A stretch of 64,000 bases of DNA from Candidatus Poribacteria bacterium (GTDB lineage: Bacteria; Poribacteria; WGA-4E; PCPOR2b), in contig OZ244042.1 in NCBI GenBank assembly GCA_965215015.1, forward strand, positions 288,001-352,000. Reading direction: 5' to 3'. A program made the translations under genes and the position numbers. Positions 4,693-29,292 of the stretch are shown piece by piece; positions within the stretch are counted from its first letter, which is position 1, and each line of letters opens with the position of its first letter. Below the pieces are notes generated by a model, which had not been told where the DNA came from, searched no databases, and saw nothing but the letters and a program-made list of their open reading frames with translations.

Positions 4693-5433
4693 TTGATGCT
4701 TACTGATGCAGAAAAAGCCCACCTTGATGAACACGGCTTTGTACTTTTGAAAAATGCTATCACAACCGATCACGCGGACGCACTCCGTGAGCGATCGCTG
4801 ACACTCGCTGAGCAGGAGCGAGAGGTCTTAAAAGAGCATGTGTATCTGGATGACAAGGGGCAACGGGTGTGGAATCTGGTGGACAAAGGCGAGTTGTTTG
4901 AAAGCGCAATTCAATACCCTCGCGTACTCAACGCAATAGAGTATCTGCTCGGTGAGGACTGTACGCTCAGTTCCTTTACTGTGAACATTATCGGCCCCGG
5001 TGCGCCGGAGGGCGGGCTTCACATTGACCATCCCTTGAGTGGGATGCCGACGCCTCGTCCAAGCTTTGCCCTGTCTGCTAATAGTGTTTGGTTTCTCGAT
5101 GATTTTACACTTGAGAACGGTGCGACCCGTTGTGTCCCCGGGAGTCACCGCCGACTGGAATCCCGGCCCGAACCGGGCGTTAGTTACAACGACGCAGTGC
5201 AGATCACCGGTCCGAAGGGTTCTGTGATGATTATCAACGGGTCCCTGTGGCACGCCTCATCTACGAACCATACCGATCGCGCTCGTGTTTGTCTGCTCGG
5301 TTTCTTCTGTCGTGCTTTTATGAAGCCACAACAAGATCAGCAGAAAATCGTTTCTGAAGAAGTTATTGCGCGTGCGACGCCAACGTTGAAGCGACTGCTC
5401 GGCTTTGATTCCATGCCGAATACCAACGCGTAA
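4693..5433 (+). CDS. PhyH-family dioxygenase
   Basis: LHID motif, DFTLENGATRCVPGSH, LWHA. Confidence 0.9.
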   Translation: MMLTDAEKAHLDEHGFVLLKNAITTDHADALRERSLTLAEQEREVLKEHVYLDDKGQRVWNLVDKGELFESAIQYPRVLNAIEYLLGEDCTLSSFTVNIIGPGAPEGGLHIDHPLSGMPTPRPSFALSANSVWFLDDFTLENGATRCVPGSHRRLESRPEPGVSYNDAVQITGPKGSVMIINGSLWHASSTNHTDRARVCLLGFFCRAFMKPQQDQQKIVSEEVIARATPTLKRLLGFDSMPNTNA

Positions 5434-5455
5434 ACCCGACGGGATAGATTTTGAT

Positions 5456-5919
5456 ATGAACATCAAAAGCGGAGATATTATACAATCCAATCGCTGGCCC
5501 GAACCTGTAGAAATTGAACTCGTGGAAGAGATGGAAGAGGTGGAGGGATACGTCCGTCTCGTTGGCTATCGTCATCAATTGCCTTTTCTGGATCTGAAGC
5601 GATTCTCCGAGAGGACCTCTGTATTGCCCAGAGTGGAATGAACCTAAAAGACCCACCGGAATCTATCCCTCCACCGGAGCCTATCCCTTCAACGAAGCCT
5701 CCCAAACCATCGCTAGACGGACGCGACAGTGTTCGACTGAAGTTCACAGTTCCGAAAGGGAAGGTGTCGGGCCTCCTGGGTATGATGAGTTTGCTGCAAT
5801 CGAATTTCAATAACCTTCAAATTGAGTTACTGGCGACAGAGGGGCAGATGTCTAATCAGGATTACGAAGATAAAATCAAAGAGACATTTGTGCAATTAGA
5901 GATTAATCCGGAGGAATAA
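5456..5919 (+). pseudogene. Fused gene remnants: start of an SNF2-type helicase joined to the end of a DUF499-type ATPase
   Basis: MNIKSGDIIQSNRWPEPVEIELVEE...YVRLVG, then a frame change into SIAFSGSEAILREDLC...KFTVPKGKVSGLLGMMSLLQSNF...DYEDKIKETFVQLEI; family assignment from recalled similarity only. Confidence 0.5.
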
Positions 5920-5972
5920 AACTTTAGAGGTCTATTTCCGAGAGCAGATTCGGAAAAAACAAGAAGGAAACG

Positions 5973-6371
5973 ATGATGCCAACCGCTTTTGAAGCAATTG
6001 ACAGATGGATTGACGAGGCACGCGCCAAACTAAAAGATGGAGGGCTTCAGCAGGGAGATCTGGATCAACTCCGCTGTATTATCAGCGCAAATCGGGTGCA
6101 CACACGACAACGGCTGCTCTATCTCCATGCGGCGACACCGAGCATCCGCTCTCAGGTCATCGGGATGGCGTTGCACGAACCTGTGCAGGGATTGGTGACG
6201 GAGATTGTAACAGAGGAGCAGGAGTGGCCCTACGATACGGTACACGACGCAATTCTGGACGGTTGGCAGGTCATCCACTTTCCGGATCAGCGAACAGAAT
6301 TTGATGACCGAGAAATTGACATCTTGGGCTACGAATTTATCCTACAAAAATTGGAGGTTTACAATGGCTGA
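5973..6371 (+). CDS. Conserved hypothetical protein coupled to the downstream PhyH
   Basis: RBS AAGGA, 132 aa, 8-nt overlap with the next gene. Confidence 0.7.
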   Translation: MMPTAFEAIDRWIDEARAKLKDGGLQQGDLDQLRCIISANRVHTRQRLLYLHAATPSIRSQVIGMALHEPVQGLVTEIVTEEQEWPYDTVHDAILDGWQVIHFPDQRTEFDDREIDILGYEFILQKLEVYNG

Positions 6372-7122
6372 CAAACCGTATCTATTGAGCGACGACGAAA
6401 TCATCTCTTTTATCATTCACGGTTCCCACATTGTTGAGCCTGATTTCCCCGAAGGCTTCAATGAATCGATTTACGCTGAGCTTGAGGCCTTGGATATTCA
6501 ACGAAACAATCCGGGCGATGGGATTTTGGACAAAGTTCCGAAACTTTATCAGGTATACGACCATCCCAAAGTACGCGGCGCATTGGTGAGTCTGCTCGGT
6601 GAAGATGTCCAGATGAACGGTCATCGACACTGTCACGTGAATCCGCCCGGCACGCGAAGTCAGTCATGGCATCAAGATGGCACTAACAAGCGGCATCATC
6701 ACATCCAAACTGTCTTGGCGATGTACTATCCCCAAGATGTGCCCGCAGAACTCGGACCGACGGTGATTATGCCCGGCACACACTTCCGCAATACCCCGAC
6801 CGATCGCATGGCGACCTATGCCAACTTCCGTGAGCAGGTACCCCTCACCGTCAAGGCAGGGACGGTGGCGATCACGCACTACGACATCTGGCACGCCGCA
6901 GCCGCGAATCGTGGGACGAAAACACGCTACATGCTTAAGTTCCTCTTTAGCCGTGGCAGCGAACCGAAATCGCCAAGTTGGAACCACCATCCGGAGGAGG
7001 CTGCCGCCTCGATGCGTCGCTTTACCTTTGAGCGGGCATGTGCCTGTTCCCAATCGGATCATTACAAGGAACGCGGGTTGCGTATGGAAATGTGGGAGCA
7101 TCTTGTTGGAAAAACGGCATGA
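6364..7122 (+). CDS. PhyH-family dioxygenase
   Basis: WHQD motif, GPTVIMPGTH, IWHA; RBS GGAGG before ATG 6364. Confidence 0.9.
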   Translation: MADKPYLLSDDEIISFIIHGSHIVEPDFPEGFNESIYAELEALDIQRNNPGDGILDKVPKLYQVYDHPKVRGALVSLLGEDVQMNGHRHCHVNPPGTRSQSWHQDGTNKRHHHIQTVLAMYYPQDVPAELGPTVIMPGTHFRNTPTDRMATYANFREQVPLTVKAGTVAITHYDIWHAAAANRGTKTRYMLKFLFSRGSEPKSPSWNHHPEEAAASMRRFTFERACACSQSDHYKERGLRMEMWEHLVGKTA

Positions 7123-7229
7123 TAACCACATGATAACCAATGGTTTTAATTTGCAAGCTGCTGATACGCTCTCCGGTCAAAGACAGAGAGTGAAACGTGA
7201 AACCGAATCGTCTCGTTTTCTCATTATGG

Positions 7230-7551
7230 CTCAATGAACTAGTGAAGCAATGAACTCCTGAACATCGCCGAGGCGGTGTTGTTTGCTGATGAGTTGTCGC
7301 AACCGAAAATCCAAGTGCTCGTTGACTTTTATCACCAGATGCTTAAGGGAGAGGTTTGATGAGATCGGCCGCACGGGAGATCGAATTGCACACCGGGCAG
7401 CGGCAAATACGATTATCAGCGTTTTGCCAGAAGCCTTGCTGATGCTGGACACAATCAGCGGGGCTCTGTGGAGTGCAATTTTAGGGATTTCGATAAGGAA
7501 GTATCTCAATCAATTCAGTTTCTGCACGAGGTATTCAACGCAGAGCAGTAA
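7230..7551 (+). pseudogene. Frameshifted C-terminal fragment of a sugar-phosphate isomerase/epimerase (xylose isomerase-like TIM barrel)
   Basis: Across three frames: LNIAEAVLFADELSQPKIQVLVDFYHQM / DEIGRTGDRIAH / PGSGKYDYQRFARSLADAGHNQRGSVECNF...*. Confidence 0.65.
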
Positions 7552-7644: not shown

Positions 7645-7860
7645 CTACCCTATTCTTGAGCAGTATGGTGACGCCCGGGAGTCAGATTGCGATAGAAATT
7701 GATCGAATCTGCCCCCGGATGAATTTTCGGTTACAGATTCAAATCTTAGCAGCAAAATCCTTTGGGAGATAATAAGACGAGATGGTGCTCTACTCCCCGC
7801 CAGTATCGTGATAGAACCCATCCCGTAATTCTAAAAGATAGATACCGAGGTAAGGTTACT

Positions 7861-9681
7861 ATGGCTACCATCAAGAACCCATCCGAAAAGAAAGATTCGG
7901 GAAATACCTTTAAGGAAATGCAAGATCGGACGAATCTATCCGCACCTCCCTCAGAGCGGATTACCTCCGAAAGAAAGATTCGTGAGCTAACATTCACTAT
8001 CGAGTCGTTGGAGAGCGAGATTGATGATTTGAGAAGACGCTTAAACGCTGCTCCTTCCGACGATGTTGAAGTTCGTCTCTACGAAATGACCCGCGACTTA
8101 ATGCACGCCCACCGTAGAAATCGGAAGTTGACCAGCACCCTTCAAGAAGCCAAAGAGAAACTAGAACAGTTGAAGGAGAAGGTTGAACAGCTCAGTGCCC
8201 CACCGAATAACTACGGCGTTTTCCTTCAATCAAACGATGACGGAACCCTTGATATTGACCTTGGCGGCAAAAGGTGGCGCGTCAACGCCGATCCGGAGAT
8301 TAACGCCGATCAGCTTCAAAAAGGGCAAGAGGTCATCGTCAACGGTGTGATGAACGTTGTGAATGTTAGGGAATTTGAGCGGCAAGGTGAAGTGGTCAAA
8401 GTCAAGGAAATGCTTGACGATAACCGTGTGCTTGTGAATCTACGCGCCGATGAAGAGCGAGTTGTGGAAGTATCAGATCCGCTCAACCAAGAGGAACTTA
8501 AGTTTGGGGATAATGTCATGCTGAATCCAATCACCGGGATGGTTATGGAAAAATTGCCCAAACTTGAAGTTGAAGACCTGCTGCTCGAAGAGGTGCCGGA
8601 CATTAAATATTCGGATATTGGGGGATTAAATGAACAGATTGAGGCGATTCGGGACGCTATTGAAACGCCTTACCTCTATCCCAGTGAATACAAGGAATTC
8701 CAGTTAAAGCCTCCGAAAGGGGTGCTGCTTTATGGACCCCCCGGCTGCGGCAAAACGTTAATTGCCAAGGCGGTCGCCAATAGTCTAGCAGCTAGGGTCA
8801 GAGAACAGACAGGTAGAGATGATATAGAAAGTTATTTTATCAATATCAAGGGGCCCGAGCTACTCAATAAGTATGTTGGCGAAACGGAGCGAAAGATTCG
8901 AGAGGTCTTCCAGAAAGCCAAGGATAAGTCCAAAGAAGGAGTTCCGGTCATTATCTTCTTCGATGAGATGGATTCGCTTTTCCGATCCAGAGGTATGGGT
9001 ATTTCGTCCGATATGGAGTCAACGGTGGTGCCCCAATTCCTCGCTGAGATCGATGGCGTCGAGGGACTCAGAGATGTGGTTGTCATTGGTGCAAGCAACC
9101 GCCAAGACCTTCTGGACCCCGCCGTTTTACGCCCCGGCCGGTTAGATATCAAGATTAAGGTTGATCGCCCCGAAGCTGAGGGGGCAAAGGATATTTTCGC
9201 CATATACCTGACGCCGGACCTGCCGATTGCCCCTTCAGTGTTAGAAAAGTTTGAGGGCGATCGGGAAAAAGCGGTTCGGTCCCTCACCGACCAAGCGATA
9301 GAGAAGATGTATGCGACCACCGACGAAAACAAATTTATTGAGGTGACTTACAATCGTGGGGAACGTGAAACGCTCTACTTTAAGGATTTTGCGAGTGGGG
9401 CGATGATTGAAAACATCGTTGATCGTGCCAAAAAGATGGCGATCAAACGGCTGATCGATTCTGAAGGGAAAGAGAAGGGCATTACCCTTGATGACCTCGA
9501 ACGTGCAATCCAAGAAGAATATAAGGAGAATGAAGATCTGCCTAACACCACCAATCCCGACGATTGGGCGAAGATATCGGGACGGAAAGGCGATAGAATC
9601 GTCAACATTAAGGCATTGACCCACGAACCAGAGCCGAAAAGACGGGATGTAAGAACCGTCAAAGGTGGGGCTTACCTCTAA
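7861..9681 (+). CDS. arc: Proteasome-associated AAA+ ATPase ARC/Mpa
   Basis: N-terminal coiled coil, OB domains, GPPGCGKT, FFDEMD, DLPNTTNPDDWAKISG, C-terminal HbYX tail GAYL. Confidence 0.97.
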   Translation: MATIKNPSEKKDSGNTFKEMQDRTNLSAPPSERITSERKIRELTFTIESLESEIDDLRRRLNAAPSDDVEVRLYEMTRDLMHAHRRNRKLTSTLQEAKEKLEQLKEKVEQLSAPPNNYGVFLQSNDDGTLDIDLGGKRWRVNADPEINADQLQKGQEVIVNGVMNVVNVREFERQGEVVKVKEMLDDNRVLVNLRADEERVVEVSDPLNQEELKFGDNVMLNPITGMVMEKLPKLEVEDLLLEEVPDIKYSDIGGLNEQIEAIRDAIETPYLYPSEYKEFQLKPPKGVLLYGPPGCGKTLIAKAVANSLAARVREQTGRDDIESYFINIKGPELLNKYVGETERKIREVFQKAKDKSKEGVPVIIFFDEMDSLFRSRGMGISSDMESTVVPQFLAEIDGVEGLRDVVVIGASNRQDLLDPAVLRPGRLDIKIKVDRPEAEGAKDIFAIYLTPDLPIAPSVLEKFEGDREKAVRSLTDQAIEKMYATTDENKFIEVTYNRGERETLYFKDFASGAMIENIVDRAKKMAIKRLIDSEGKEKGITLDDLERAIQEEYKENEDLPNTTNPDDWAKISGRKGDRIVNIKALTHEPEPKRRDVRTVKGGAYL

Positions 9682-9689
9682 GATAGATT

Positions 9690-11180
9690 ATGACCATACC
9701 AACGATTATGGGGACCGAAACCGAATACGGCATTTCGGTCAAAAATGCGCGAGATCCCGATCCGGTGGCAGCCTCAACGCTTGTTGTCAATATCTATAAA
9801 GACCGGGGGATTAAGGGAATCACTTGGGACTATGATCAGGAAAGTCCCTTGATGGATGCCAGAGGGTTTGTTTCTGAAGGGGCAACGGACATCCCGGATC
9901 AGGAAAATAATAGCCTCATCAATGATGTCCTCGCCAATGGGGGGCGCTACTATGTCGATCACGCCCACCCAGAGTATTGTACCCCGGAATGCACCAATGC
10001 GCGCGATCTGGTCAAATATGAGAAGGCGGGAGAATTGATATTGGATTTGAGTCGTATGGCCGCCCAAGAGCTGTTGCCCACGAATCAGGAGATTATTATT
10101 TATAAGAACAACAGCGATTATAAGGGGCACAGCTACGGTGCTCACGAAAATTATCTAATGTCTCGGGATGTCCCCTTCCAAGACATTGTTGATGGCTTAA
10201 CGCCTTTTCTCGTGACGCGACAGCCCATCACAGGGAGTGGTAAAATCGGTGCTGAAAATGGCGCAGCGGAAACGGATTATCAAATCTCCCAACGTGCTGA
10301 TTTCTTCGAGACCGAAGTTGGATTAAGCACAATGGTGGCGCGCCCGATTATCAATACGCGGGATGAGCCACACGCTGATGAAATGCTATACCGTCGGCTG
10401 CACGTCATCGTCGGCGATTCCAACATGTCGGAATTTTCCATCTATTTGAAGGTGGGAATTACGTCAATTGTGCTGCAACTCATCGCAAAGGGGGTTATGG
10501 CGGATAAGTTCAGGCTCTCCGACCCTGTTTTGGCAATCAAAACGGTGTCCCGCGATCTTTCTTGTAAAGCACCTTTGGACTTAGAAGATGGTCGGAAATG
10601 GACACCCATTGAGATGCAGCGCGAATATCTTGAGCTAGCCCATAAGCACCTCTCCACAAAGGAATTGTCTGAGGTCGTGCGCGATGTCATAAAGACATGG
10701 GAATTTGTTCTCGACCGCCTCAACGAGGACCCGATGAGCCTAGATCGACACCTCGATTGGGTCATTAAGAAAAGACTGATTGATGCGTACCTGCGACGCC
10801 ACCGTTTAGCCCATTCAGACCACCAAGTTCGGATGTTAGACTTGCAGTATCACGACCTCCGCCCGAATAAAGGGCTTTACGCGAGGTTGCTGAAAAATGG
10901 ACGTGTTGAACGACTCCTCAAACATGAGGAAATCGTTCAAGCGATTAACAACCCACCTGTTGATACACGTGCCTATTTTCGGGGCATGTGTTTACAAAAG
11001 TATCCCAATGAAATTCACAGCGCAAGCTGGAATTCAATGATTTTTTGTACTGACAATTCTTCTTTAGATAAAATCTTAATGGATCGCCCCCACTTCGGGA
11101 CACAGGAGATGACGGGCAATCTACTGAGAGACTGCACGGCTGCAGAACTGGTTCAAGCCATTCTCACATCCAACCATTAG
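9690..11180 (+). CDS. dop: Depupylase/deamidase Dop
   Basis: MGTETEYGI, YVDHAHPEY, RPIINTRDEPHAD, TRAYFRG. Confidence 0.95.
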   Translation: MTIPTIMGTETEYGISVKNARDPDPVAASTLVVNIYKDRGIKGITWDYDQESPLMDARGFVSEGATDIPDQENNSLINDVLANGGRYYVDHAHPEYCTPECTNARDLVKYEKAGELILDLSRMAAQELLPTNQEIIIYKNNSDYKGHSYGAHENYLMSRDVPFQDIVDGLTPFLVTRQPITGSGKIGAENGAAETDYQISQRADFFETEVGLSTMVARPIINTRDEPHADEMLYRRLHVIVGDSNMSEFSIYLKVGITSIVLQLIAKGVMADKFRLSDPVLAIKTVSRDLSCKAPLDLEDGRKWTPIEMQREYLELAHKHLSTKELSEVVRDVIKTWEFVLDRLNEDPMSLDRHLDWVIKKRLIDAYLRRHRLAHSDHQVRMLDLQYHDLRPNKGLYARLLKNGRVERLLKHEEIVQAINNPPVDTRAYFRGMCLQKYPNEIHSASWNSMIFCTDNSSLDKILMDRPHFGTQEMTGNLLRDCTAAELVQAILTSNH

Positions 11181-11195
11181 AAGGAGGGAAGCAAC

Positions 11196-11393
11196 ATGCC
11201 AGCCGAAAAGCAACAGGAACAAAGAGACAAACAGACTCAGGATACTGAGGAAGTTCAACCGGATCAAGAAGTCGTAGAACAGGGCGAAGAGATTAAAGAA
11301 GATCTCGATCAACTCCTTGATGAAATCGACGAAATCTTGGAAGAAGACTCAGAAGAATTTGTCGAAAATTATATTCAGCGAGGAGGCGAATAG
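11196..11393 (+). CDS. pup: Prokaryotic ubiquitin-like protein Pup
   Basis: 65 aa acidic protein, LDQLLDEIDEILEEDSEEFVENYIQRGGE. Confidence 0.97.
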   Translation: MPAEKQQEQRDKQTQDTEEVQPDQEVVEQGEEIKEDLDQLLDEIDEILEEDSEEFVENYIQRGGE

Positions 11394-12232
11394 TGGTCTT
11401 TAGCCGCTCCGATCATAGAACCTCCGATTTCCTTGAGCTCTTGCAGAGGGAACGTCCGGAGCTTCTATCAAGGTTCGGTACAACGCCCGGGACGGACCCA
11501 CCCGCTCCAAACTGGAAAGGACAGCGTGTGCCAACTCCCAGTTTGATGGATCTTTACGATAACCTCCTTGAAGGAACCACCGTATTAGCCGCTGTCTACA
11601 ACGAGGGGGTTATCATCGCTGGAGACCGTCAGGCAACAGCAGGATTTCAAGTGGGGGAACGGCGTATACGGAAGGTCTATGAAGTAGATGCCTATTCAGC
11701 CATCGCAATTGCTGGCGTCGCCGGACCGGCCATGGAAATGGCGAAGCTCTTCCAGGTACAGGTGGAGTTTTATGAAAAAATAGAAGGCTCCCCCTTAAGC
11801 CTAGAGGGCAAAGCCAATTCTCTGTCAAACATGGTCAAATCCAATTTACCTATGGCGTTGCAAGGACTGGTGGTTGTTCCAATTTTCGCAGGATATGACC
11901 TCAAACGGAAACAGGGAAAGATCTTCAAATACGACGCGATAGGAGGGCAATACGAAGAAGGCGAATACTATGCCACCGGATCCGGCGGCAAAGATGCACA
12001 AGCGACACTAAAAAAATTGTATAGCCCCGATATCTCCCGCGATGACGTCCTGCAGATAGTTGTCGAGGCACTCTGGGATGCGGCCGATGAGGATGTGGCT
12101 ACAGGGGGACCTGATTTTATTCGGGAGATTTTCCCGACAATGAAGATTATTGATGCGACGGGAATCTCAGATATACCGGATTCAGAGGTCAAGGCACTCT
12201 ATACTGAGCTACTTGACAGACTCCGCGGTTGA
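11393..12232 (+). CDS. prcB: 20S proteasome beta subunit
   Basis: Propeptide followed by G|TTVLA, AGDRQATAG, ATGSG; GTG start overlaps the pup stop. Confidence 0.96.
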   Translation: MVFSRSDHRTSDFLELLQRERPELLSRFGTTPGTDPPAPNWKGQRVPTPSLMDLYDNLLEGTTVLAAVYNEGVIIAGDRQATAGFQVGERRIRKVYEVDAYSAIAIAGVAGPAMEMAKLFQVQVEFYEKIEGSPLSLEGKANSLSNMVKSNLPMALQGLVVVPIFAGYDLKRKQGKIFKYDAIGGQYEEGEYYATGSGGKDAQATLKKLYSPDISRDDVLQIVVEALWDAADEDVATGGPDFIREIFPTMKIIDATGISDIPDSEVKALYTELLDRLRG

Positions 12233-12296
12233 CTCCCGGTTTGAGCGGCTTTGAAAACTACTGATAATTAATACCTGCAATTTGAGGGAGGAGTAG

Positions 12297-13007
12297 ATGC
12301 CCGCACCGTATTACGTGTCGCCCGAGCAAATCATGCAGGAAAAAGAGGATTTTGCTCGGAAGGGGATTGAGAAGGCAAAAGAGGTTATTGTTCTAGAATA
12401 CCGAGATGGTATTCTGATGGTTGCAGAAAATCCGTTGGCGACGGTTTTCAAGATTTCGGAAATCTATGATCGGATCGCACTTGCAGCGACCGGACTCTAT
12501 CCGGACTACGAAGCCCTACGATATGCAGGGATTCAGGGTGCCGAAATCAAAGGGTTTACCTTTAACCGCGAAGATGTTACGGCAAAATGGCTCGCAAATC
12601 AGTATTCACAGCAGATTGGTGCAATCTATCGGCAACCTGATGCAAAACCCCTTGAGGTAGAACTCCTCCTCTGCGAAATCCGCGACGATTCTGCGTCGAA
12701 CAACAGAATCTATCACCTGTCTTTTGATGGTACGTTTTGGGAAGACAATGAATATACCGTCATCGGCGGAAGAGCGGATGAAATCGCAGGTATCCTCGAA
12801 AATGAGTATAGCAACGGTTTGGAGTTGAGCAGTGCTGTGAGGGTTGCTGCAAGGACTTTTGAAACGATAGAAGCCGAAGTCGGGGAAGCGGAACGATACC
12901 AAGTGACGGCTGAGACAATCGAAGTAGCCGTACTTGACCAAACTCTAAATCGGCGCAAATTTAGGCGGTTGCTGCCTGATGAACTGAGTGGGATCTTGAG
13001 CACATGA
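12297..13007 (+). CDS. prcA: 20S proteasome alpha subunit
   Basis: PYYVSPEQIMQEKEDFARKGI, KISEIYDRIA, KPLEVELL. Confidence 0.96.
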   Translation: MPAPYYVSPEQIMQEKEDFARKGIEKAKEVIVLEYRDGILMVAENPLATVFKISEIYDRIALAATGLYPDYEALRYAGIQGAEIKGFTFNREDVTAKWLANQYSQQIGAIYRQPDAKPLEVELLLCEIRDDSASNNRIYHLSFDGTFWEDNEYTVIGGRADEIAGILENEYSNGLELSSAVRVAARTFETIEAEVGEAERYQVTAETIEVAVLDQTLNRRKFRRLLPDELSGILST

Positions 13008-14362
13008 ACCGAAGGATTTATGGTCTGGAAAACGAATATGGAATTATCTGCACGTCGGATCGACGAGGTGGAAAAGCCTTGTCTATTCAAAATGCGGTGA
13101 TGTATCTGTTTCGAGAGATTATTTCCGGGCGGATGTATCCGGACGTTTTTCTAGAGAATGGTGCCCGGTTTTATCAGGATATCGGCTGCCACCCCGAATA
13201 TGCGACGCCTGAATGCGATAACGTGAGCGACCTTGTCAGCCACGATAAAGCCGGTGAGCGGATCATTGAACGGCTTTCTATTGCGGCAGAGCGGAAAATG
13301 CAAGCCGATGGATTTTTTGGACGGATTTCGGTCTTCAAGAATAATACCGATACACCCGGCAACACATACGGCTGCCATGAAAACTATCTGATGGATCGCC
13401 GTGTGAGCTTCCGTCAACTCGCTTCCCAACTCATCCCCTTCTTTGTGACCCGCCAAGTCTTTGCCGGGGCGGGGAAGGTCAAATCCACCAACCGAGGTGG
13501 ATACGCAATCTCCCAACGGGCGCAGCATATCCGTGAAGAAATCTCAATTGCAACGACAACAGCGCGAGGCATCATCAACACGCGAGATGAACCGCATGCT
13601 GACCGAGAAAAATATCGACGCCTGCACGTCATTGTCGGCGACTCCAACATGTCGGAGTTTGCTACCTACCTCAAGATTGGTACGACAGCAATCGTCTTGC
13701 GGATGATCGAAGATAACTTTATCAAGCAGCGTCTCGCGTTGCGCGATTCTGTCCGAGCAATTCAGCAAATCTCGGAGGATATCACCTGCACCCGGAAAAT
13801 TGAATTGGAAAATGGCAAGCGGCTTTCAGGCGTTGAGATGCAATGGGAATACCTTGAATGCGCCAAGCAGTATTTCGAGCAAGTCGAATCGGATCCAATC
13901 ACCGATCAGATTATGGCGCGGTGGGAATATGTGCTGACCTGTTTGGAAACCGATCCGATGCAGCTTGACCGAGAGCTTGATTGGGTCATCAAGAAGAAAT
14001 TGATTGAAATCTATGTGGCGAGCCGACAACTCAAGTGGAACTCCGCCAAAGTTATGATGCTCGACTTACAGTACCACAATATTCGGCCGGAGCTTGGATT
14101 ATATTACAAGCTCGAAAAAGAGGGGCGTGTTGAACGGATTGTCAGCGATAACGAGGTTGAACATGCGATGCATCACCCACCTGAAACTACCCGTGCCAAA
14201 TTCCGCGGCCGCTTTGTAAAGCTGGCAAATGAGCGAAAGATTCTGTGCGGCGTTAATTGGAGTTATATCCAACTTTACGAACCCTACCAAAAACTCTACC
14301 TTTCCACGGATCCCTTGCAAGCTGATTATGAAGAAGCTAGCCGAATGATTTATTCGATTTAG
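13004..14362 (+). CDS. pafA: Pup-protein ligase
   Basis: RRIYGLENEYG, FLENGARFY, HPEYATPEC, GCHENYL, PPETTRAKFRG. Confidence 0.96.
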   Translation: MNRRIYGLENEYGIICTSDRRGGKALSIQNAVMYLFREIISGRMYPDVFLENGARFYQDIGCHPEYATPECDNVSDLVSHDKAGERIIERLSIAAERKMQADGFFGRISVFKNNTDTPGNTYGCHENYLMDRRVSFRQLASQLIPFFVTRQVFAGAGKVKSTNRGGYAISQRAQHIREEISIATTTARGIINTRDEPHADREKYRRLHVIVGDSNMSEFATYLKIGTTAIVLRMIEDNFIKQRLALRDSVRAIQQISEDITCTRKIELENGKRLSGVEMQWEYLECAKQYFEQVESDPITDQIMARWEYVLTCLETDPMQLDRELDWVIKKKLIEIYVASRQLKWNSAKVMMLDLQYHNIRPELGLYYKLEKEGRVERIVSDNEVEHAMHHPPETTRAKFRGRFVKLANERKILCGVNWSYIQLYEPYQKLYLSTDPLQADYEEASRMIYSI

Positions 14363-17810: not shown

Positions 17811-18121
17811 CATCGCAGTTTGTAGTAGCGCAATTCATTGCGCGTTAGATCCTATGGCATGTAGTAGGCTTACTCAACCATATAAAGAAATAGTGCAAAC
17901 AAAACGAGTTGTTGCGGAAAAACTCGATCTCTCTAAGCTGCTCTGCACTTTCTTTCAAGCTCCCGTTGCTGAACATCGCAGTTTGTAGTAGCGCAATTCA
18001 TTGCGCGTTAAATGTTATGGCATGTCGTAGGCTTACTCAACCATATAAAGAAATAGTGCAAAGAAACCGAGTGTTTTCGGAAAAACTCGGTTTCTCTAAG
18101 CTGCTCTGCACTTTCTTTCAA
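17811..18121 (+). repeat. Two 148-bp direct repeats, each with a GTAG REP and a palindromic AGTGCA..CCGAG/CTCGG..TGCACT element
   Basis: 17811-17958 vs 17974-18121; related partial elements near 33490-33545 and 54403-54465. Confidence 0.85.
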
Positions 18122-18148: not shown

Positions 18149-21100
18149 ATGCCAACCCTCATCCTCAAACCCACCCACAAGCCCATCAAAGCCTACTACG
18201 CCGCAGTCAAGCAATTTGACCGGCTCGGCGTTACACACGAGACTGCTGTCCGATCGGCATTTCAATCCCTGCTTGAATATTGTGCACGACAGTTTAGCCT
18301 GACTCTGGTGCCTGAACATTCGATAACCGTCCATCGAAACAAGCGGATTGTGGTTGATGGTGCGTTGATCGACGATTTCCAACTGCCTCACGGCTATTGG
18401 GAGGCAAAGGATATCCACGACAACCTGCCAATCCAAGTCCAGCGCAAGTTTGAAGCAGGATACCCCCGCGACAATCTCCTCTTCCAAACGCCACAACGCG
18501 CCATTCTTTGGCAGAACGGTCAGCAGATGCTTGATGTCAATCTGAATGACCCGATGCAACTCATAGAGGTCCTCGAAACCTTCTTTTCCCACCGTTCGCA
18601 GGAATACACCCAATGGGAGGAGGCGGTTGCACAGTTCAAAGACAAAGTGCCCGCCCTCGGAGACAGTTTGGCAGCCCTGATCCAAAAGGAACGGGAGGCC
18701 AACCTCCACTTTACCACCGCGTTTGAGGATTTTTACGAGAAATGCCGTCAATCGATCAATCCCAACCTCTCCGAAGCTGCTGTTGAGGAGATGTTGATCC
18801 AACATCTGTTGACCGAGCGGATTTTCCGAACTGTCTTTAGCAACCCCGATTTCACTGACCGTAATGTCATCGCCCGCGAGATCGAGACCGTCATTAAGGC
18901 ACTCACAGAGCAAGCGTTTAGCCGGGACGATTTTCTGCGTAGCCTGGATCGCTTTTACCTCGCAATCGAACGGGCAGCCGCAACCATCAACGACTTCTCC
19001 CAAAAGCAGAGCTTCCTCAACACGGTTTACGAGCAGTTTTTTCAAGGCTTTTCGGTCCAGGTTGCCGATACGCACGGGGTAGTCTACACACCGCAACCGA
19101 TTGTCGATTTTATGGTGAGAAGCGTGGATCAGATATTAAAGACCGAATTTGGGAACGGGCACAGAGAACCGGCAGCCACGAGAGCTGCCACTACGATTTC
19201 GGATAGGGAGGTTCACATCATCGACCCGTTTGTGGGGACAGGCAATTTCATTGTGCGGATGATGCGGGAGATTCGCCCAACCGCACTTGAGGATAAATAC
19301 ACAGCAGAACTCCACTGCAACGAGGTGATGTTGCTGCCCTACTATATCGCCTCGATGAACATTGAGCATGAATTTTATGAGGCGATAGGCACGTATCGTC
19401 CCTTTGAGGGTATCTGCCTCGTGGATACCTTTGAACTGGCAGAGGACCGACAGTTGCCCCTATTCGCGCCGGAGAACACCCAACGCGTTGAGGCTCAGAA
19501 GAACACCCCGATGTTTGTCATTATCGGCAATCCACCCTATAACGTCGGTCAGGTCAACGATAGCGACAATAACAGGAATCGGAAATACCCAGCGATGGAC
19601 GCACGGGTTGCAGAAACCTATGCAAAAGATTCCAAGGCGAAGCTCAAAAGTAAACTCTACGATCCGTATGTAAAAGCAATTCGGTGGGCATCGGATCGGA
19701 TTGGGGAGAAAGGGGTTGTCGCCTTCGTGACCAACAACAGCTTTCTTGACGGTGTGGCGTTTGATGGAATGCGGAAACACCTTGCAGATGATTTCGACGC
19801 GATTTATATTTTGGACTTGGGCGGAAATGCACGGAAGGGATTGAAGGCCTCGGATGCCAATGTGTTCGGGATACGGGTCGGCGTGAGCATCAACCTATTT
19901 GTGAAGAACGGATGGGCGATGAATCGCCCTACTACAAACAGAGGGGGCTCGGTCTCTGCTCGTATCTTTTACTATCGCACCGATGACCAATGGAACAAAA
20001 AACGAAAGTTCGATTTTCTGAATGAGTATGGACATATAGGCAATGTAGATTGGCAGACTATTTGTCCCGACGCGCGCCACACATGGTTGACAGAGGGGCT
20101 CCACGCCGAATTTGAAACCTTTATCCCAATGGGAAGTCAGGAAGCGAAGGCAGGAAAAGGCGAGGCGGTAGGTGTGATTTTCAAAACTTATAGCCTCGGC
20201 ATCAACACTGCCCGGGACGCATGGGCGTACAACTTTAATCGAAACGCTTTGGCTGAAAACATAAGTGGAATGATTGATACCTACAATGCAGAAGTCGATC
20301 GATGGAAACGTCAAGTCAATTGGAACGCAAATGTCGATGATTTTGTGGTTTATGATGACAAGAAAATCAAGTGGGATCGGGAATTAAGACAGCACTTAAA
20401 ACGAGAGAGAATCGCCGAATATACCGAACACAAGGTGAGAAGTTCATTCTACCGTCCTTTCACAAAATCAAATCTCTACTTTGATCGGGTTATGAACAAT
20501 CGCGTGTATGTGTTTCCATCTATCTTCCCCACACCAGAGGCCGAAACAGAAAATCGGGTGATTTGTGTTGCTGGTATTGGTGATAGAAAAGGCTTTGGCT
20601 GTCTTATAACAAATAGGATTCCTGCCCTTGATTTGGCCTTTGAAAAGGCCCAATGCTTCCCCTTTTACACCTACGACGAGGACGGAACGAACCGCCGCGA
20701 AAACATCACCGATTGGGCGTTGGCACAATTCCGAACACATTACCGAGACGACACCATTACCAAGCACGACATTTTTCATTACGTCTACGCCCTCTTGCAT
20801 CACCCCGACTATCGGGAACGGTATCAAGCGAACCTCAAGCGCGACCTGCCGCGCCTGCCGTACACCCCCGACTTTTGGGGGTTTGCCAAAGCGGGACAAC
20901 GGTTAGGGGAAATCCACATCGGCTATGAGGAGATGCCCGAATATCAGCTCACATTCATCGAAAACCGTGAGGTGCCGCTCGATTGGCGTGTGGAAAAGAT
21001 GAAACTGTCCAAAGACAAAACGCAAATCAAATACAACGACTTCCTAACCCTCGACGGGATACCCGCGAAGGCGTTTGAGTATCGACTTGGGAATCGGTCC

Positions 21101-21277
21101 GCGTTGGAATGGGTAATCAACCAGTATTGCATCAAGACAGACAAACGCAGCAGCATCCTCAACGACCCGAACCGTCAGGAGGAGCCACAATATATTGTCA
21201 AGCTAATCGGAAAGGTGATCGCAGTCAGTTTGGAGACAGGGGCGATTGTCGATGGATTGCCGGGGCTTACATCGTGA
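18149..21277 (+). CDS. Single-chain restriction-modification enzyme (type IIG/ISP-like: nuclease, N6-adenine MTase, TRD; no helicase)
   Basis: VDG...WEAKD nuclease motif, GVVYTP, DPFVGTG, IGNPPY, ISP-type C-terminus YRLGNRSALEWVINQY. Confidence 0.88.
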   Translation: MPTLILKPTHKPIKAYYAAVKQFDRLGVTHETAVRSAFQSLLEYCARQFSLTLVPEHSITVHRNKRIVVDGALIDDFQLPHGYWEAKDIHDNLPIQVQRKFEAGYPRDNLLFQTPQRAILWQNGQQMLDVNLNDPMQLIEVLETFFSHRSQEYTQWEEAVAQFKDKVPALGDSLAALIQKEREANLHFTTAFEDFYEKCRQSINPNLSEAAVEEMLIQHLLTERIFRTVFSNPDFTDRNVIAREIETVIKALTEQAFSRDDFLRSLDRFYLAIERAAATINDFSQKQSFLNTVYEQFFQGFSVQVADTHGVVYTPQPIVDFMVRSVDQILKTEFGNGHREPAATRAATTISDREVHIIDPFVGTGNFIVRMMREIRPTALEDKYTAELHCNEVMLLPYYIASMNIEHEFYEAIGTYRPFEGICLVDTFELAEDRQLPLFAPENTQRVEAQKNTPMFVIIGNPPYNVGQVNDSDNNRNRKYPAMDARVAETYAKDSKAKLKSKLYDPYVKAIRWASDRIGEKGVVAFVTNNSFLDGVAFDGMRKHLADDFDAIYILDLGGNARKGLKASDANVFGIRVGVSINLFVKNGWAMNRPTTNRGGSVSARIFYYRTDDQWNKKRKFDFLNEYGHIGNVDWQTICPDARHTWLTEGLHAEFETFIPMGSQEAKAGKGEAVGVIFKTYSLGINTARDAWAYNFNRNALAENISGMIDTYNAEVDRWKRQVNWNANVDDFVVYDDKKIKWDRELRQHLKRERIAEYTEHKVRSSFYRPFTKSNLYFDRVMNNRVYVFPSIFPTPEAETENRVICVAGIGDRKGFGCLITNRIPALDLAFEKAQCFPFYTYDEDGTNRRENITDWALAQFRTHYRDDTITKHDIFHYVYALLHHPDYRERYQANLKRDLPRLPYTPDFWGFAKAGQRLGEIHIGYEEMPEYQLTFIENREVPLDWRVEKMKLSKDKTQIKYNDFLTLDGIPAKAFEYRLGNRSALEWVINQYCIKTDKRSSILNDPNRQEEPQYIVKLIGKVIAVSLETGAIVDGLPGLTS

Positions 21278-22242
21278 TCGATTGGAGGGTGGCAATCTGA
21301 AGATGCCCCCTCGCTTCCATTTCCCCACAACTAGTTATCCCGAAAATCCTTTAATCCAGTAAATCCTGATTCAGACAAGCTCAACCCTCCACGGGATACC
21401 CGCAAAGGCGTTTGACTATTTGGAGACAGGGGCGATTGTGAAAGGGTTGCCAGATTGGGCAATCTGAAGATCCGCCCTCCCTGCCATTTCCCCACAACTA
21501 GTTATCCTGAAAATCCGCTAATCCACTAAATCCCGATTCAGACAAGATATTATCAAAATTATCCGAAAGGTGATCACGGTCAGTTCGGAGACAGGGGCGA
21601 TTGTGAAAGGATTGCCAGATTGGGCAATCTGAAGAGGCACCCTCGCTTCCATTGCCCCACAACTAGTTATCCTGTAGTTATCCTGAAAATCCTTTAATCC
21701 AGTAAATCCTGATTCAGACAAGCTCAACCCTCCACGGGACACCCGCAAAGGCGTTTGACTATTTGGAGACAGGGGCGATTGTGAAAGGATTGCCAGATTG
21801 GGCAATCTGAAGAGGCACCCTCCCTGCCATTGCCCCACAATTAGTTATCCTGAAAATCCTTTAATCCACTAAATCCCGATTCAGACAAGATATTATCAAA
21901 ATTATCCGAAAGGTGATCACGGTCAGTTCGGAGACAGGGGCGATTGTGAAAGGATTGCCAGATTGGGCAATCTGAAGATCCGCCCTCCCTGCCATTGCCC
22001 CACAACTAGTTATCCTGAAAATCCGCTAATCCACTAAATCCCGATTCAGACAAGATATTATCAAAATTATCCGAAAGGTAATCACAGTCAGTTTGGAGAC
22101 GGGGGCGATTGTCGATGGATTGCCGGGGCTTACATCGTGATCGATTGGAGGGTAGCAATCTGAAGATGCCCCCTCGCTTCCATTTCCCCACAACTAGTTA
22201 TCCTGAAAATCCTTTAATCCACTAAATCCTGATTCAGACAAG
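21190..22242 (+). repeat. Six tandem 165-188 bp units, each an R-M gene 3' fragment plus an AATCC-rich repeat
   Basis: Units end in GATTCAGACAAG at 21379, 21546, 21722, 21889, 22054, 22242. Confidence 0.92.
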
Positions 22243-22243
22243 C

Positions 22244-22777
22244 TCAACCCTCCCGTCTAGCGCGACGCCGGGTGATTCGGCGTTGGGCTTTACGGTCTCC
22301 ATCATCCTCCGTGTTTGTCGTTCGTTGACGGTGTCGTAACCGTTCCCGTACACGGGGCCTATTGTCTGTGGACTCTGATGCTAGGTGATTTGAGCGAGCG
22401 TACCGGCTCCGGTTGAGCGTCCGTTGAATTGGGAGATGATCCTGACGTTCTCCAACACGACGATTGGGGGTTGTCCCTTGGATTGACCTTTGAGCAGGAG
22501 CACGTTGAACAGGCTTCTCATCCGCACGGTAACTATCATGCGGATTCGGATCGATATGCATCCGATAGTCCAATTCAGATACGTCGCCGTAATATTGGCG
22601 ATATTGGGACAGCTGCCAAGCGTCATAGAAGAAGCTTGGCGGGAGACTATCATAAAACTCCACATCGTTTTCATAGACCAACTGTTCCTCTTCAAGAGGG
22701 ACAGTGCGGATGCTGCACCCCGCCACAAACATGGCTGCAAGTGAAATCACCAACACAATATGAAAGCGAAATTTCAT
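22244..22777 (-). CDS. Hypothetical lipoprotein with Arg-rich disordered tail
   Basis: Signal peptide with VAGC lipobox; RBS GAGGA. Confidence 0.7.
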   Translation of the reverse strand: MKFRFHIVLVISLAAMFVAGCSIRTVPLEEEQLVYENDVEFYDSLPPSFFYDAWQLSQYRQYYGDVSELDYRMHIDPNPHDSYRADEKPVQRAPAQRSIQGTTPNRRVGERQDHLPIQRTLNRSRYARSNHLASESTDNRPRVRERLRHRQRTTNTEDDGDRKAQRRITRRRARREG

Positions 22778-22815
22778 GATAGTCCTCTATTTCGTCGGAT
22801 TTGCTGCCTGTACCA

Positions 22816-23739
22816 CTAATCTCCCCATACGGATCCACGTGGCACCCACAACCATTGCTGTCCCGGATAGAGTCGCTGCCGATCGAAGTCGTAGTCGTCC
22901 TGATTTGCTTCGGCGAGCCGGGGCCACAGTTCGGCATCGTCGTATACTTCTGGACGTGAGGCAATTATTGCAAGCGTATCTCCTTCACGTACAAGGTATC
23001 GGTCAACCTTCTCCGGGGAGACGATTGTAAAGCTAAAGGTGCGCCCCGAAGCCAAGGTATTGCCAGCGGCGGCGGTATCTTTGACACCCGATATATTGAC
23101 AGTATACTTACGCCCTGATCGATACGGTTCGTTGGAGGAAAATGTAATTGTGTTCCCACTGCCAGAAACAGTACCAGCAATCTCGCCAGATTGTTCGGTA
23201 GCAGAATCCGGCGTTGACTCAACGGAAACAGTTAAAGTACCAGAGGCGCTGTCAACATCTTCGCTGAAGGTGATTGAAATAGGAACACTCACACTCAACG
23301 AGTCTTCATACTCCGATATGACTGTCCCATCCGCGGGGCTGACTCCCGTGATTGTTGGAGCGGTTGCGTCGGTGTAGGTAAATTGCTGGCTTATTGTAAC
23401 AGTGCCCTCTGGTTTCGTATTGCCGTTGTTGGTTACAACGACTGAAACCGATTCGCCTGCCATCCCCGGCGGTGTCACTGCCGTAATCTCCATTGCACTG
23501 GGAACATTTACGCTTGTGGCATTCTTCCCGCCTATCTTCACCGTAACACCATTTTTCATATCAAACTTTTCACCCGTAATTCGGATGGTTGTCCCACCGG
23601 TCTCGGGGCCTTCCGTTGGACTGAAACTTGCTGGCTCAGGGGGCGGATTGCAGCCGCTGCATCCGGAAATCCCAACCAATATAAATGCAAATGCAATAAC
23701 CGTTGAAATATTTCTGAGTGTTTTCATTAGTGTTTTCAT
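22816..23739 (-). CDS. Lipoprotein with IPT/TIG, Ig-like (Big_5) and LysM domains
   Basis: ISGC lipobox; SPTEGPETGGTTIRITG; PTITGVSPADG..ITFSEDVD; YLVREGDTLAIIA. Confidence 0.85.
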   Translation of the reverse strand: MKTLMKTLRNISTVIAFAFILVGISGCSGCNPPPEPASFSPTEGPETGGTTIRITGEKFDMKNGVTVKIGGKNATSVNVPSAMEITAVTPPGMAGESVSVVVTNNGNTKPEGTVTISQQFTYTDATAPTITGVSPADGTVISEYEDSLSVSVPISITFSEDVDSASGTLTVSVESTPDSATEQSGEIAGTVSGSGNTITFSSNEPYRSGRKYTVNISGVKDTAAAGNTLASGRTFSFTIVSPEKVDRYLVREGDTLAIIASRPEVYDDAELWPRLAEANQDDYDFDRQRLYPGQQWLWVPRGSVWGD

Positions 23740-26594: not shown

Positions 26595-26846
26595 ATTTGC
26601 GCCGGAGGCCTCCGGCGCAATCTCACGATACAAGGCATAAGTTGCTATCTATCATATTTGGGGAACGCAATGAGTAGATAGGGGCTTTTCTCTGAATTTA
26701 ACGCAAAGATGCCCCCTTACCCCCCTCGGTCCCCCCGCAAGCAGGGGGAGGTGCAAGGGGGGGACTAAAGGGGTCCAGTACCGCTTCGGTTGCCCTCCCA
26801 AGGGAATGCTTACCGCATCATGGATTCACAATTTCATCGGGAGAGC

Positions 26847-27363
26847 TGAAAAAACGAAACTAGAACCTTCCCTGACGAAGGGGAAGACGGTTGTCTCGTT
26901 TTCTTCTTTTTGCGTTCCCCTTCCCCCTGCTAAATACCCGGTGGGTTGTCCGTCAGTTCCTGGCTCATTGAGCCTACCCCCCTCAATCCCCCCCCAAGCA
27001 GGGGGAAGAGATACCGTGTGGGTATTCGGGCCTGAGGGGGGTGCGTCCAAGCGTTTTATTAAAAGCCAGTAATTCATTACTTATCCCCTTTGGGGAATAG
27101 CGGATTCGACAGTGCCGCCTGATAGGTTTGTCGTCTGCCGGACTGATCGCCGCCGAGCCATCGGTATTGCCTCGGATAGAGCGTCAGGGACCGGTCTTCC
27201 AGCGGCAGCTTCAGCGGGACACTGCCCCACAGGGCGGAATACTTGGCGGCGACCGCCGCTTCGAGGGACTGGCGTAGGTGAAGAAACGAAACTAGAACCT
27301 TCCCTGACGAAGGGGAAGACGGTTGTCTCGTTTTCTTCTTTTTACGTTCCACTTCCCCCTGCT
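26847..27363. repeat. Partial duplication of the oxidoreductase 3' end with interspersed palindromic repeats
   Basis: 27088-27279 matches 27389-27580; 26847-26931 matches 27279-27363; about 26929-27016 matches about 54218-54306. Confidence 0.9.
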
Positions 27364-28466
27364 TGCGGGGGGACTGAGGGGGGTGCCTCTTTGGGGAATA
27401 GCGGATCCGACAGTGCCGCCTGATAGGTTTGTCGTCTGCCGGACTGATCGCCGCCGAGCCATCGGTATTGCCTCGGATAGAGTGTCAGGGAGCGGTCTTC
27501 CAGCGGCAGCTTCAGCGGGACACTGCCCCACAGGGCGGAATACTTGGCGGCGACCGCCGCTTCGAGGGACTGGCGTAGGTCATGCCCCGATATGGCCAGC
27601 TCCCCTCCGTTTGACACCACGTCGAGGAAAGACATAATCGATGTTGCCATATAGGTGAAACGGGGATATTGCACCGGGGTGTAGAAAGTTTCCACCTTAA
27701 TCCGGGCCCCGTTCGGATCAAAACCACGATAGATTTCGGGGGGTGCCCAATCCCATCGAATGAGTGTATCGTCAGTCCATACGTCAACGCCCCGGTAAGG
27801 GGTCTCCTCACCGAAAACGGGACAGATGAGACCGTTGCTCAGACGAAATTGCCCGTTGATAATCAAACCATCGTCGTTGTCGCCTTGAAGTGCTGCTTCA
27901 GGTGTGCCCCAAGCGATTACCTCGGTTATCTCTGCCTGTGCTAGGAGCCGCAGCACAGCAATATGCTGACACCCGCCGCCCGATATCTCGCCGCCCCAGC
28001 GGTGGATGCAGGTGCCGCGTAGTTCACCGTAGTTACCAGCGCGGAGCCAACCAGCAACCTCTTGGACCTCCGAAAGTGCCCGCTGGAGGTTCCCCCCGGC
28101 AAAGACGACGCCGCGTTCCTCACATACCTCAACCATTTCATCGGCATCTGCCAGACACGCCCCAATTGGCTTGTCGGTGGACACGCCTTTGACTCCCGCT
28201 TCAGCACTTGCAATCACCGCGTCTTTTATATACTTGCCGGGCAAAACGACAGCGGCAATGTCCGGGACAATTTCGCGGTACATAGCTTCCGCGTCCGGGT
28301 ACAGTGCTTTGATGCCAAAACGTTCACCGACAGCGCGCCGCCGCTCCGGGTTGTGTTCAGCAATGGCAACCAACTCGGTATTCGGCAGTGTCTGATACAC
28401 CTCCGCGTAGTGCTGACCGAGGCGTCCGCAACCAATAATCGCAACGGTATATTTGGGATCAGCCAT
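27342..28466 (-). CDS. Gfo/Idh/MocA family oxidoreductase
   Basis: VAIIGCGRLG, STDKPI, GGGCQH; RBS AGGAGG. Confidence 0.9.
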   Translation of the reverse strand: MADPKYTVAIIGCGRLGQHYAEVYQTLPNTELVAIAEHNPERRRAVGERFGIKALYPDAEAMYREIVPDIAAVVLPGKYIKDAVIASAEAGVKGVSTDKPIGACLADADEMVEVCEERGVVFAGGNLQRALSEVQEVAGWLRAGNYGELRGTCIHRWGGEISGGGCQHIAVLRLLAQAEITEVIAWGTPEAALQGDNDDGLIINGQFRLSNGLICPVFGEETPYRGVDVWTDDTLIRWDWAPPEIYRGFDPNGARIKVETFYTPVQYPRFTYMATSIMSFLDVVSNGGELAISGHDLRQSLEAAVAAKYSALWGSVPLKLPLEDRSLTLYPRQYRWLGGDQSGRRQTYQAALSDPLFPKEAPPSVPPQAGGSGT

Positions 28467-28790: not shown

Positions 28791-29053
28791 TGAACCCACG
28801 GTTCTAATTGCTCAGTTGCCTAATTTCTATAACAAATGCAATTCCCCTATGAGTCCACCCGATTGCTAAATAAACGCAAAGTCACAAAGACGCAAGAGGT
28901 ATTCAGATTGAAAGGTTAGAAGTGTAGAAGGATAGGGCACTCAGATATATCGGTTTCTTTAGAGGTCAACTTGAATAAAATAATCCTGCCAATCCTTTCA
29001 GCCTGAAAGTCCTGATTCAGACAATAATTATGAGCACCTCTTAAATAAATCCG

Positions 29054-29143: not shown

Positions 29144-29183
29144 GGAGTTATCCACTTCTCAGCTCGTAGTCGCGCGTTCGTAT

Positions 29184-29292
29184 AGTTCTCCCCTGCCTGT
29201 GGGGGAGTTAGAGGGGGTTTAGTTCTCCCCTGCTTGCGGGGGAGTTAGAGGGGGTTTGGTTCTCCCCTGCTTGCGGAGGAGTTGAGGGGTTT
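29184..29292 (+). repeat. Three tandem 37-bp palindromic units without spacers
   Basis: GTTCTCCCCTGCTTGCGGGGGAGTTAGAGGGGGTTT; related CCCCCGCAAGCAGGGGG palindromes near 26730, 26990, 27355, 54278, 54330. Confidence 0.85.

Follow-up and report, generated by a model that had tools for sequence, protein, structure and literature searches.

Why is the end of an R-M gene followed by further copies of itself? The question arises in Candidatus Poribacteria (contig OZ244042.1), where the last few dozen bases of such a gene, together with the non-coding DNA behind them, are copied and shuffled into a six-unit array. The copies could be a store of alternative ends for the enzyme, the trace of its repeated replacement or a product of recombination without function. 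The window, meaning the whole analysed stretch of 64,000 nucleotides, was examined together with related loci, and its features are listed in Table 1.

The R-M protein contains a PD-(D/E)xK nuclease, an ISP coupler, an N6 methyltransferase and Type_ISP_C, with Pfam matches to PF22240 (residues 166-282), PF02384 and PF18135 (Type_ISP_C, 677-1019). Its best solved relative is PDB 7LO5 (E=8e-198, residues 27-1040), which, by name and length, we take to be DrdV; the nuclease motif region aligns with it and NPPY is present. Nuclease, methyltransferase and TRD lie in one chain with no ATPase, as expected of Type IIL/IIG. The match to LlaGI/LlaBIII begins at residue 189, and no helicase match was found by Pfam in the R-M protein, so the enzyme is not Type ISP proper. 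It is a predicted DrdV-like nuclease-methyltransferase-TRD fusion. According to the accessible part of its preprint, DrdV is a Type IIL enzyme of 1029 residues whose TRD contacts the bases through N673, R721, Y764, D803 and K807 (10.1101/2021.01.06.425610). Counted by hand on the alignment of the window protein with 7LO5, these contacts fall on A688, R744, Y787, D828 and K833.

The gene also carries two in-frame insertions (~19150-19200 and 19910-19942, residues ~335-350 and 590-600), both of which differ in length among orthologues; the one at 19910-19942 is an inverted match to an intergenic GTAGTAG repeat. Elsewhere in the window, a Pup-proteasome gene cluster (7762-14362) was recognized by Pfam through a proteasomal ATPase and a member of the Pup-ligase family, its proteasome subunits and second ligase being named from sequence and not from the scan.

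Table 1. Positions of the R-M gene, the array units and the convergent gene in the window
Feature	Position	Strand	Evidence
DrdV-like Type IIL/IIG R-M gene, 1042 aa	18149..21277	+	Pfam, PDB match, PADLOC REase_MTase_IIG
Specificity-bearing part of TRD, aa 688-833; without copy in array	20210..20647	+	Mapped DrdV contacts; most variable among orthologues
Gene-internal segment, aa 966-977; copied from allele B at the start of units 2 and 4	21046..21082	+	
Unit 1: end of the gene itself (allele A), followed by the 3' non-coding stretch and the AATCC repeat	21187..21379	+	
AATCC-rich dispersed repeat, first of six array copies	21337..21378	+	Lone copy at 28983-29024
Unit 2: J1 (CTCAACCCTCC), then the internal segment, a skip of 146 bp, the end of allele B, the 3' stretch and the repeat	21380..21546	+	
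Unit 3: J2, allele-B tail (L1019I, G1021R, L1028S, LPDW end), 11-bp local duplication, repeat	21547..21722	+	
Unit 4: copy of unit-2 type (343-bp dimer repeat)	21723..21889	+	
Unit 5: copy of unit-3 type	21890..22054	+	
Unit 6: 5' part from allele B, 3' part from allele A; differs from unit 1 at 4 sites of their shared part	22055..22242	+	
Truncated seventh unit start, fused to convergent gene; marks deletion of native 195-aa gene and terminator	22243..22253	+	
Convergent gene, 177 aa, predicted lipoprotein-like; final two residues and stop array-derived	22244..22777	-	N-terminal sequence; no Pfam match

The initial annotation, made from the letters alone, had described a six-unit tandem array that includes the gene end, and this description holds. 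GATTCAGACAAG closes six units (at 21379, 21546, 21722, 21889, 22054 and 22242), those after the gene-end unit measure 167, 176, 167, 165 and 188 bp, and TRF reports a period of 165 with a score of 1000 as well as a 343-bp dimer at 95%. The tail translations had also been read correctly: before its stop codon the gene ends in VSLETGAIVDGLPGLTS, while units 3 and 5 read IIKIIRKVITVSSETGAIVKGLPDWAI and unit 6 reads IIKIIRKVITVSLETGAIVDGLPGLTS, its leading D coming from a junction codon. An internal gene segment is indeed copied at the start of units 2 and 4 (34/37 and 33/37 matches, respectively). Behind these 37 bases they omit 146 bp of the gene and rejoin it at TTTGGAGAC, so that residues 966-977 are joined to 1028 onward. 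Units 3, 5 and 6 begin at codon 1015-1016 and are open in the tail frame, with a 25-base core in common with the gene, and the gene part of the copies comprises residues ~1015-1042. Units 1 and 6 differ at 4 sites and units 2 and 5 at 3. The array is closed by the 11-base start of a seventh unit, CTCAACCCTCC. No unit carries a gene, and no excess of promoters or terminators was found in 21000-22900.

Two other statements stood in part. The lone AATCC-rich repeat exists, but it is 83% identical and ends in GATTCAGACAAT instead of sharing the ending of the array copies. The AACCCTC at the stop of the convergent gene is also there, but as array-derived sequence and not as native flank: all 8 orthologues printed have their stop two residues earlier, and the array supplies the last two codons and the stop.

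Regarding this right edge, ten loci have the same PPDK and convergent-gene flanks as the window. None of them carries the array (0/10). A 195-aa gene sits in the interval in 8/10, and in 9/10 a terminator-like AAAAGCCATGTAGAA..TTCTACATGGCTTTT stands shortly before the stop of the convergent gene; the window has neither. Because of this gene, this terminator and the shorter protein end in the orthologues, the edge is a deletion join, with the start of a unit on one side and the convergent gene on the other. At the PPDK locus, the two genes natively found downstream are the unannotated 195-aa gene and a weak HEPN gene (L002 +2701..+3749, L006 +370..+1413), possibly a toxin-antitoxin pair; the window has lost them.

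Mis-assembly of strain variants into a false tandem is highly improbable, since concatenating variants does not create new junctions, an internal deletion, an 11-bp duplication or a fusion to the next gene, and similar structures are present in single-contig chromosome records (L002, L023, L025, L035, L057 and L064). In its favor, the source is probably a metagenome-derived genome and the units resemble alleles.

To compare the gene end among relatives, the last 225 residues were used in a scan that confirmed 328 stretches. The best 80 of the 328 were kept, all of them from metagenome-derived genomes (62 Poribacteria, 16 from one Caldilineaceae chromosome and 2 Latescibacterota, with several loci per genome). 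The Caldilineaceae chromosome, OY282381.1 (L027, L031, L035 and 13 more), shows a large dispersed expansion of this R-M family. After dropping 6 of the 80 as broken or cut, 74 full-length relatives remained, and in these, residues 700-830 vary most within the C-terminal half. The TRDs (residues 701-800) of nine orthologues are 42-71% identical in protein sequence to that of the window, whose nearest TRD is found in L014, a non-syntenic copy. Variation among relatives, which the initial annotation had expected, is thus strong in the TRD; the tail is conserved, with I1016, L1019, V1023 and L1028 invariant (74/74), and the syntenic orthologues have no array.

Pairs with upstream synteny (n=119) show a nucleotide identity of 0.87-0.89 in the N-terminal region, 0.68-0.69 in the TRD and 0.86-0.87 over residues 871-1000, versus 0.73, 0.64 and 0.76 in unrelated pairs (n=2647). 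Since the dip in the syntenic pairs is confined to the TRD, specificity changes by exchange inside the gene, and since identity is high again at residues 871-1000, the gene end stays with its locus. The crossovers that swap TRDs lie within the gene, and no tail is left behind by them.

This speaks against the idea that every unit records a single event in which an incoming allele or paralogue replaced the TRD-bearing 3' half and pushed the old end downstream. TRD variation at one locus is indeed strong, the nearest TRD is a non-syntenic one, and in one relative, L025, two stacked remnants of the gene end correspond to the arrangements of the syntenic loci L024 and L013, all of which such replacement would explain. 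It is an unlikely origin for the array, however, where six events are not seen, the units being made up of just two alleles with two or three junctions, and TRD swaps inside the gene leave no tail.

The array had also been taken as a possible cassette reservoir of alternative C-terminal tails. Its copies cover residues 966-977 and 1015-1042, whereas the base readers map to 688-833, and the copied tail starts ~180 residues beyond the last of them. Moreover, the allele-B tail of units 3 and 5 alters L1019 and L1028, both invariant in 74/74, and reaches a score of 41 on the tail profile, whereas the 79 natural tails that are in register score at least 50, with a median of 89 (L040 is out of register). 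The stored tail is a degraded version of a conserved region. A programmed reservoir, in which repeats drive the exchange of stored tails into the gene and so vary the enzyme, is extremely unlikely. The tail frame and the 25-base core of units 3, 5 and 6 would allow a crossover to yield a new in-frame end, but collapse onto unit 6 would give the same protein and collapse onto unit 3 or 5 would change ~7 terminal residues, in a region that lies beyond all listed base-reading residues and among the conserved parts. Furthermore, the orthologous loci are without the array, the 36 window ORFs scanned include no recombinase, transposase or reverse transcriptase, and the differences are not confined to adenines (4/7 in the 5' part, by eye), unlike those of diversity-generating retroelements.

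The history of the array can be followed in its repeat variants: TCCTGATTC is followed by CTCAACCCTC in 3/3 cases and TCCCGATTC by ATATTATC in 3/3. As the variant predicts the start of the next unit each time, the joins J1 and J2 each arose once and were copied afterwards, and the six units trace to two or three junctions. In a four-gamete test over 18 informative sites, 27/153 pairs showed all four combinations (the sites are linked in blocks, so the pairs are not independent), which indicates that a single tree of duplications is insufficient and that the units are mosaics. The ETGAIV motif is common to all units and occurs in 0/80 relatives, and the first half of the 3' stretch has no match among the matches listed for the 80 loci; the units therefore derive from the lineage of this locus. 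The internal segment, being closer to three relatives (36, 35 and 35 of 37; L016 has 36) than to the resident gene (34/37), points to another allele. Allele B is a sister or earlier state of the same R-M gene. The scar reading of the initial annotation is supported by the origin of units 2-5 from a second allele of the same gene end and, in relatives, by displaced gene ends that stand before the very gene which an intact copy of the R-M gene has behind it at the same locus. Its other half, repeated replacement of the TRD part by paralogous alleles, is not, given the copied junctions, ETGAIV in every unit and a C-terminal region that is locus-specific. Since none of the relatives (0/80) has an array of this size, the history is reconstructed from one sequence.

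The AATCC-rich repeat that closes each unit has 24 matches in 19/80 loci, versus 0-2 in five shuffles. Fifteen of the 24 lie within ~0.9 kb of an R-M gene end, several of these being orthologous or from one genome. In other loci the similarity stops at GACAA, in L053 and L080 the repeats stand inverted on both sides of the R-M gene, and the allele-A 3' stretch lies between the arms of an imperfect inverted pair, GGAGGGT...ACCCTCC. J1 and J2 are both found no more than 11 bases from the natural end of the repeat, and against a scar it can be argued that this siting could reflect an enzyme acting there. The repeat would then be a REP-like site of cleavage or the terminus of some small mobile element, and a trans-acting transposase or HUH nuclease would have made the joins. 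The dispersal, the common stop, the inverted copies and the proximity to R-M genes fit such an element, which is nevertheless very unlikely. Folding of the unit ends is not stronger than in shuffles (z -1.05 to +1.1), no Rfam match was obtained for the repeat or the unit, no such enzyme appeared among the ORFs scanned, and several of the 15 near-gene matches are not separate cases. In addition, the joins of L002, L023, L025, L035 and L057 occur without the AATCC repeat, and joins fall at differing positions of the tail profile (127, 127, 143, 158, 158 and 162).

Tandems with a period of at least 60 are common, numbering 19 in 1.6 Mb of loci and three in the window; the one in L049 likewise ends in GATTCAGACAA and holds no R-M tail. 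Just upstream of the R-M gene, in repeat-rich intergenic DNA, there is a tandem of 163 bp x1.9 (17811-18121), and further intergenic tandems were located at 554-919 (104 bp x3.3) and 29180-29290 (37 bp x2.9). A Gfo/Idh/MocA gene (27342-28466), 5 kb away, has a 195-bp, 98% duplicate of its 3' end (26844-27580) beside a CCCCCTGCTTGCGGGGG repeat and now ends in repeat-derived residues; this duplicate is missing in 7/7 syntenic copies.

The array is real, and we consider it quite probable that it is neutral, a non-functional recombination scar at the 3' end of the DrdV-like R-M gene. In a first step, microhomologies would have joined the repeat-rich 3' non-coding stretch to the last 90-230 bases of the gene, giving J1, J2 and the 146-bp deletion behind J1, so that allele B, once a gene end, came to stand behind the gene. 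A tandem duplication within the chromosome could have done this, or the integration of the gene end of a sister strain through one homologous and one illegitimate crossover. Unequal homologous recombination would then have amplified and shuffled the 165-343-bp direct repeats, a process suggested by the mosaic pattern. Finally, as comparison with the orthologous loci shows, a deletion from the seventh unit start into the convergent gene removed the native gene and terminator. Short matches at joins are consistent with the first step: the paralogues L027 and L071, without a gene-end tandem, match the gene end over 10-11 bases where the join would lie, and the joins of L025 and of the second remnant in L023 show imperfect 4-7-base matches between cargo end and tail start, although such microhomologies were assessed visually, with no model of chance matches, and the match at J2 is weak. 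The copies would be neither expressed alternatives nor able to change specificity. For the window itself this has little consequence, as the array cannot retarget the enzyme; more generally, tail fragments beside R-M genes are not by themselves spare specificity cassettes.

Displaced gene ends were also sought in the relatives with blastn and nhmmer (tblastn with the last 75 residues merged short copies and missed some). The tail profile gave six remnants in 3/80 loci, L002, L023 and L025, with E-values from 1e-16 to 2e-3, the best reversed-sequence match having E=1.5. All six follow the R-M gene on its own strand and fall within its last 95 conserved bases. In L035, L057 and L064, gene-less tandems of ~113-120 bp hold the last 20-24 bases of the R-M gene. 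When one test was applied to all genes, with 53 genes that have a whole paralogue nearby excluded, a downstream copy of the gene end was found for 6/79 R-M genes versus 3/724 other genes (Fisher p=5e-5, an optimistic value, given that one genome supplies three of the six and that orthologues enter the count more than once), so gene-end duplication does not look like a uniform background. A stricter control with a 28-base minimum, which misses short tandems, gave orphan ends for 3/78 R-M genes versus 0/778 others.

Three of the six remnants continue into the gene that directly follows the intact copy at a syntenic locus. The continuation of the second remnant in L023 matches L016 (82% over 397 bp), and those of the first and second in L025 match L024 (78%) and L013 (87%, also the non-syntenic L032), respectively; no source was found for the continuations of both L002 remnants and the first of L023. 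Between the remnants lie genes for TIR_2, ThsB-TIR, Nmad2, SIR2 and NACHT (PADLOC PDC-M54A), DUF4062 (PDC-S60), UPF0150 and DUF2806, and in all three loci the displaced ends bound TIR, SIR2-NACHT, Nmad2 or DUF4062 genes. L023 has, moreover, a 96-bp, 96% repeat around a 6.2-kb insert. These tail-bounded, defence-like genes would be the outcome where displacement of the gene end carried genes and not just non-coding DNA.

At +789 in L002 and +6211 in L023 (from the R-M stop), the last cargo gene ends in a tail remnant, whose first bases overlap the stop codon of that gene, and in L073 a QueC-TIR fusion gene (5410-7329) lies directly 5' of the R-M gene. Two broader patterns found no support. Enrichment of defence families among first downstream genes was not significant (PADLOC matches in 11/55 downstream versus 4/54 upstream family representatives, p=0.09, partly spurious on both sides through a response regulator, TnpB and an ABC transporter). 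Nor did the data support downstream genes travelling with the tail between non-syntenic loci (9 pairs, tail identity 0.75 versus 0.77 in unrelated pairs), L013/L032 with 0.84 being the sole suggestive case. On plasmids, a tail-only tblastn search gave seven chance-level matches, and the 225-residue query matched 243 records at <60% identity.

A broader reading, which we put forward tentatively and with some doubt, is that in sponge-symbiont genomes with many paralogous DrdV-like R-M genes the conserved gene end may serve as a shared homology handle. Defence genes might be added blockwise behind the enzyme, pushing the old end and its passenger downstream, in integrase-free arrays whose order is readable from the stubs; the window would be a gene-less, amplified form. 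If this is true, the stubs mark cargo edges and arrival order, defence islands can grow without integrase or transposase, and unannotated defence candidates (the 181-aa, 300-aa and DUF2806 genes) are pointed out.

Several known systems resemble the array in part. Pneumococcal tvr-type phase-variable Type I loci likewise have spare pieces of R-M genes adjoining the gene, with repeats, but they store whole TRDs and use a recombinase. The window array stores no TRD, none of its silent copies holds the specificity region, and neither a linked recombinase (36 window ORFs scanned) nor a fixed crossover site was seen, as the starts of remnants vary. Integron-like arrays differ as well, since there is no integrase among the 36 ORFs, unit ends fold like shuffles and Rfam gave no match. 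Diversity-generating retroelements leave adenine-specific differences; here 3/7 differences are off adenines (by eye) and the scanned ORFs include no reverse transcriptase. Microhomology-mediated tandem duplication, with tandem units bounded by 3-10-base microhomologies, is a general mechanism. DrdV (7LO5) shares with the window enzyme the single-chain nuclease-connector-methyltransferase-TRD plan over its full length, and LlaGI/LlaBIII of Type ISP share the Type_ISP_C domain and differ by their helicase. No description of tail arrays at IIL/ISP-like genes turned up in searches of an open-access library; the accessible parts of the DrdV preprint (10.1101/2021.01.06.425610) and of a paper on defence hotspots (PMC12707154) do not mention them.

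Closer likenesses come from recombination without integrase, here as far as the accessible text of each source goes. R-M insertions with long target duplications, together with allelic TRD diversity in Type IIG genes, have been described (PMC2853133). As in L023, direct repeats of tens to ~100 bp are linked to R-M genes without a mobile element, although there the R-M genes are the insert flanked by repeats and here it is the R-M end that is duplicated as the target. Illegitimate integration at a homologous anchor, with microhomologies of 3-10 bases (HFIR), and single-crossover integration of circularised fragments, which duplicates 109-950 bp of the homologous end (PMC3240628), give comparable end duplications as general mechanisms. 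In Rhs/CDI and Vibrio T6SS arrays, old 3' ends are shifted back, and homology-facilitated illegitimate recombination without an integrase has been proposed (PMC5361080). As in L002, L023 and L025, a conserved gene is the anchor there and the old end is shifted back; in those systems it moves together with its downstream gene, which in the relatives was seen for 3/6 remnants, and former 3' ends are stacked downstream on the same strand in the window units and in the six remnants of 3/80 loci. The displaced end in those systems, however, is a variable functional toxin tip with its immunity gene, able to re-fuse, whereas at these R-M loci it is a conserved stub of 10-30 codons, with a degraded copy in the window, and exchange of the variable domain is a separate process; the units of the window, moreover, are without a gene. 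Lacking such a functional tip, and standing outside the TRD-shuffling, integron and retroelement families, the array works like a displacement or duplication scar.
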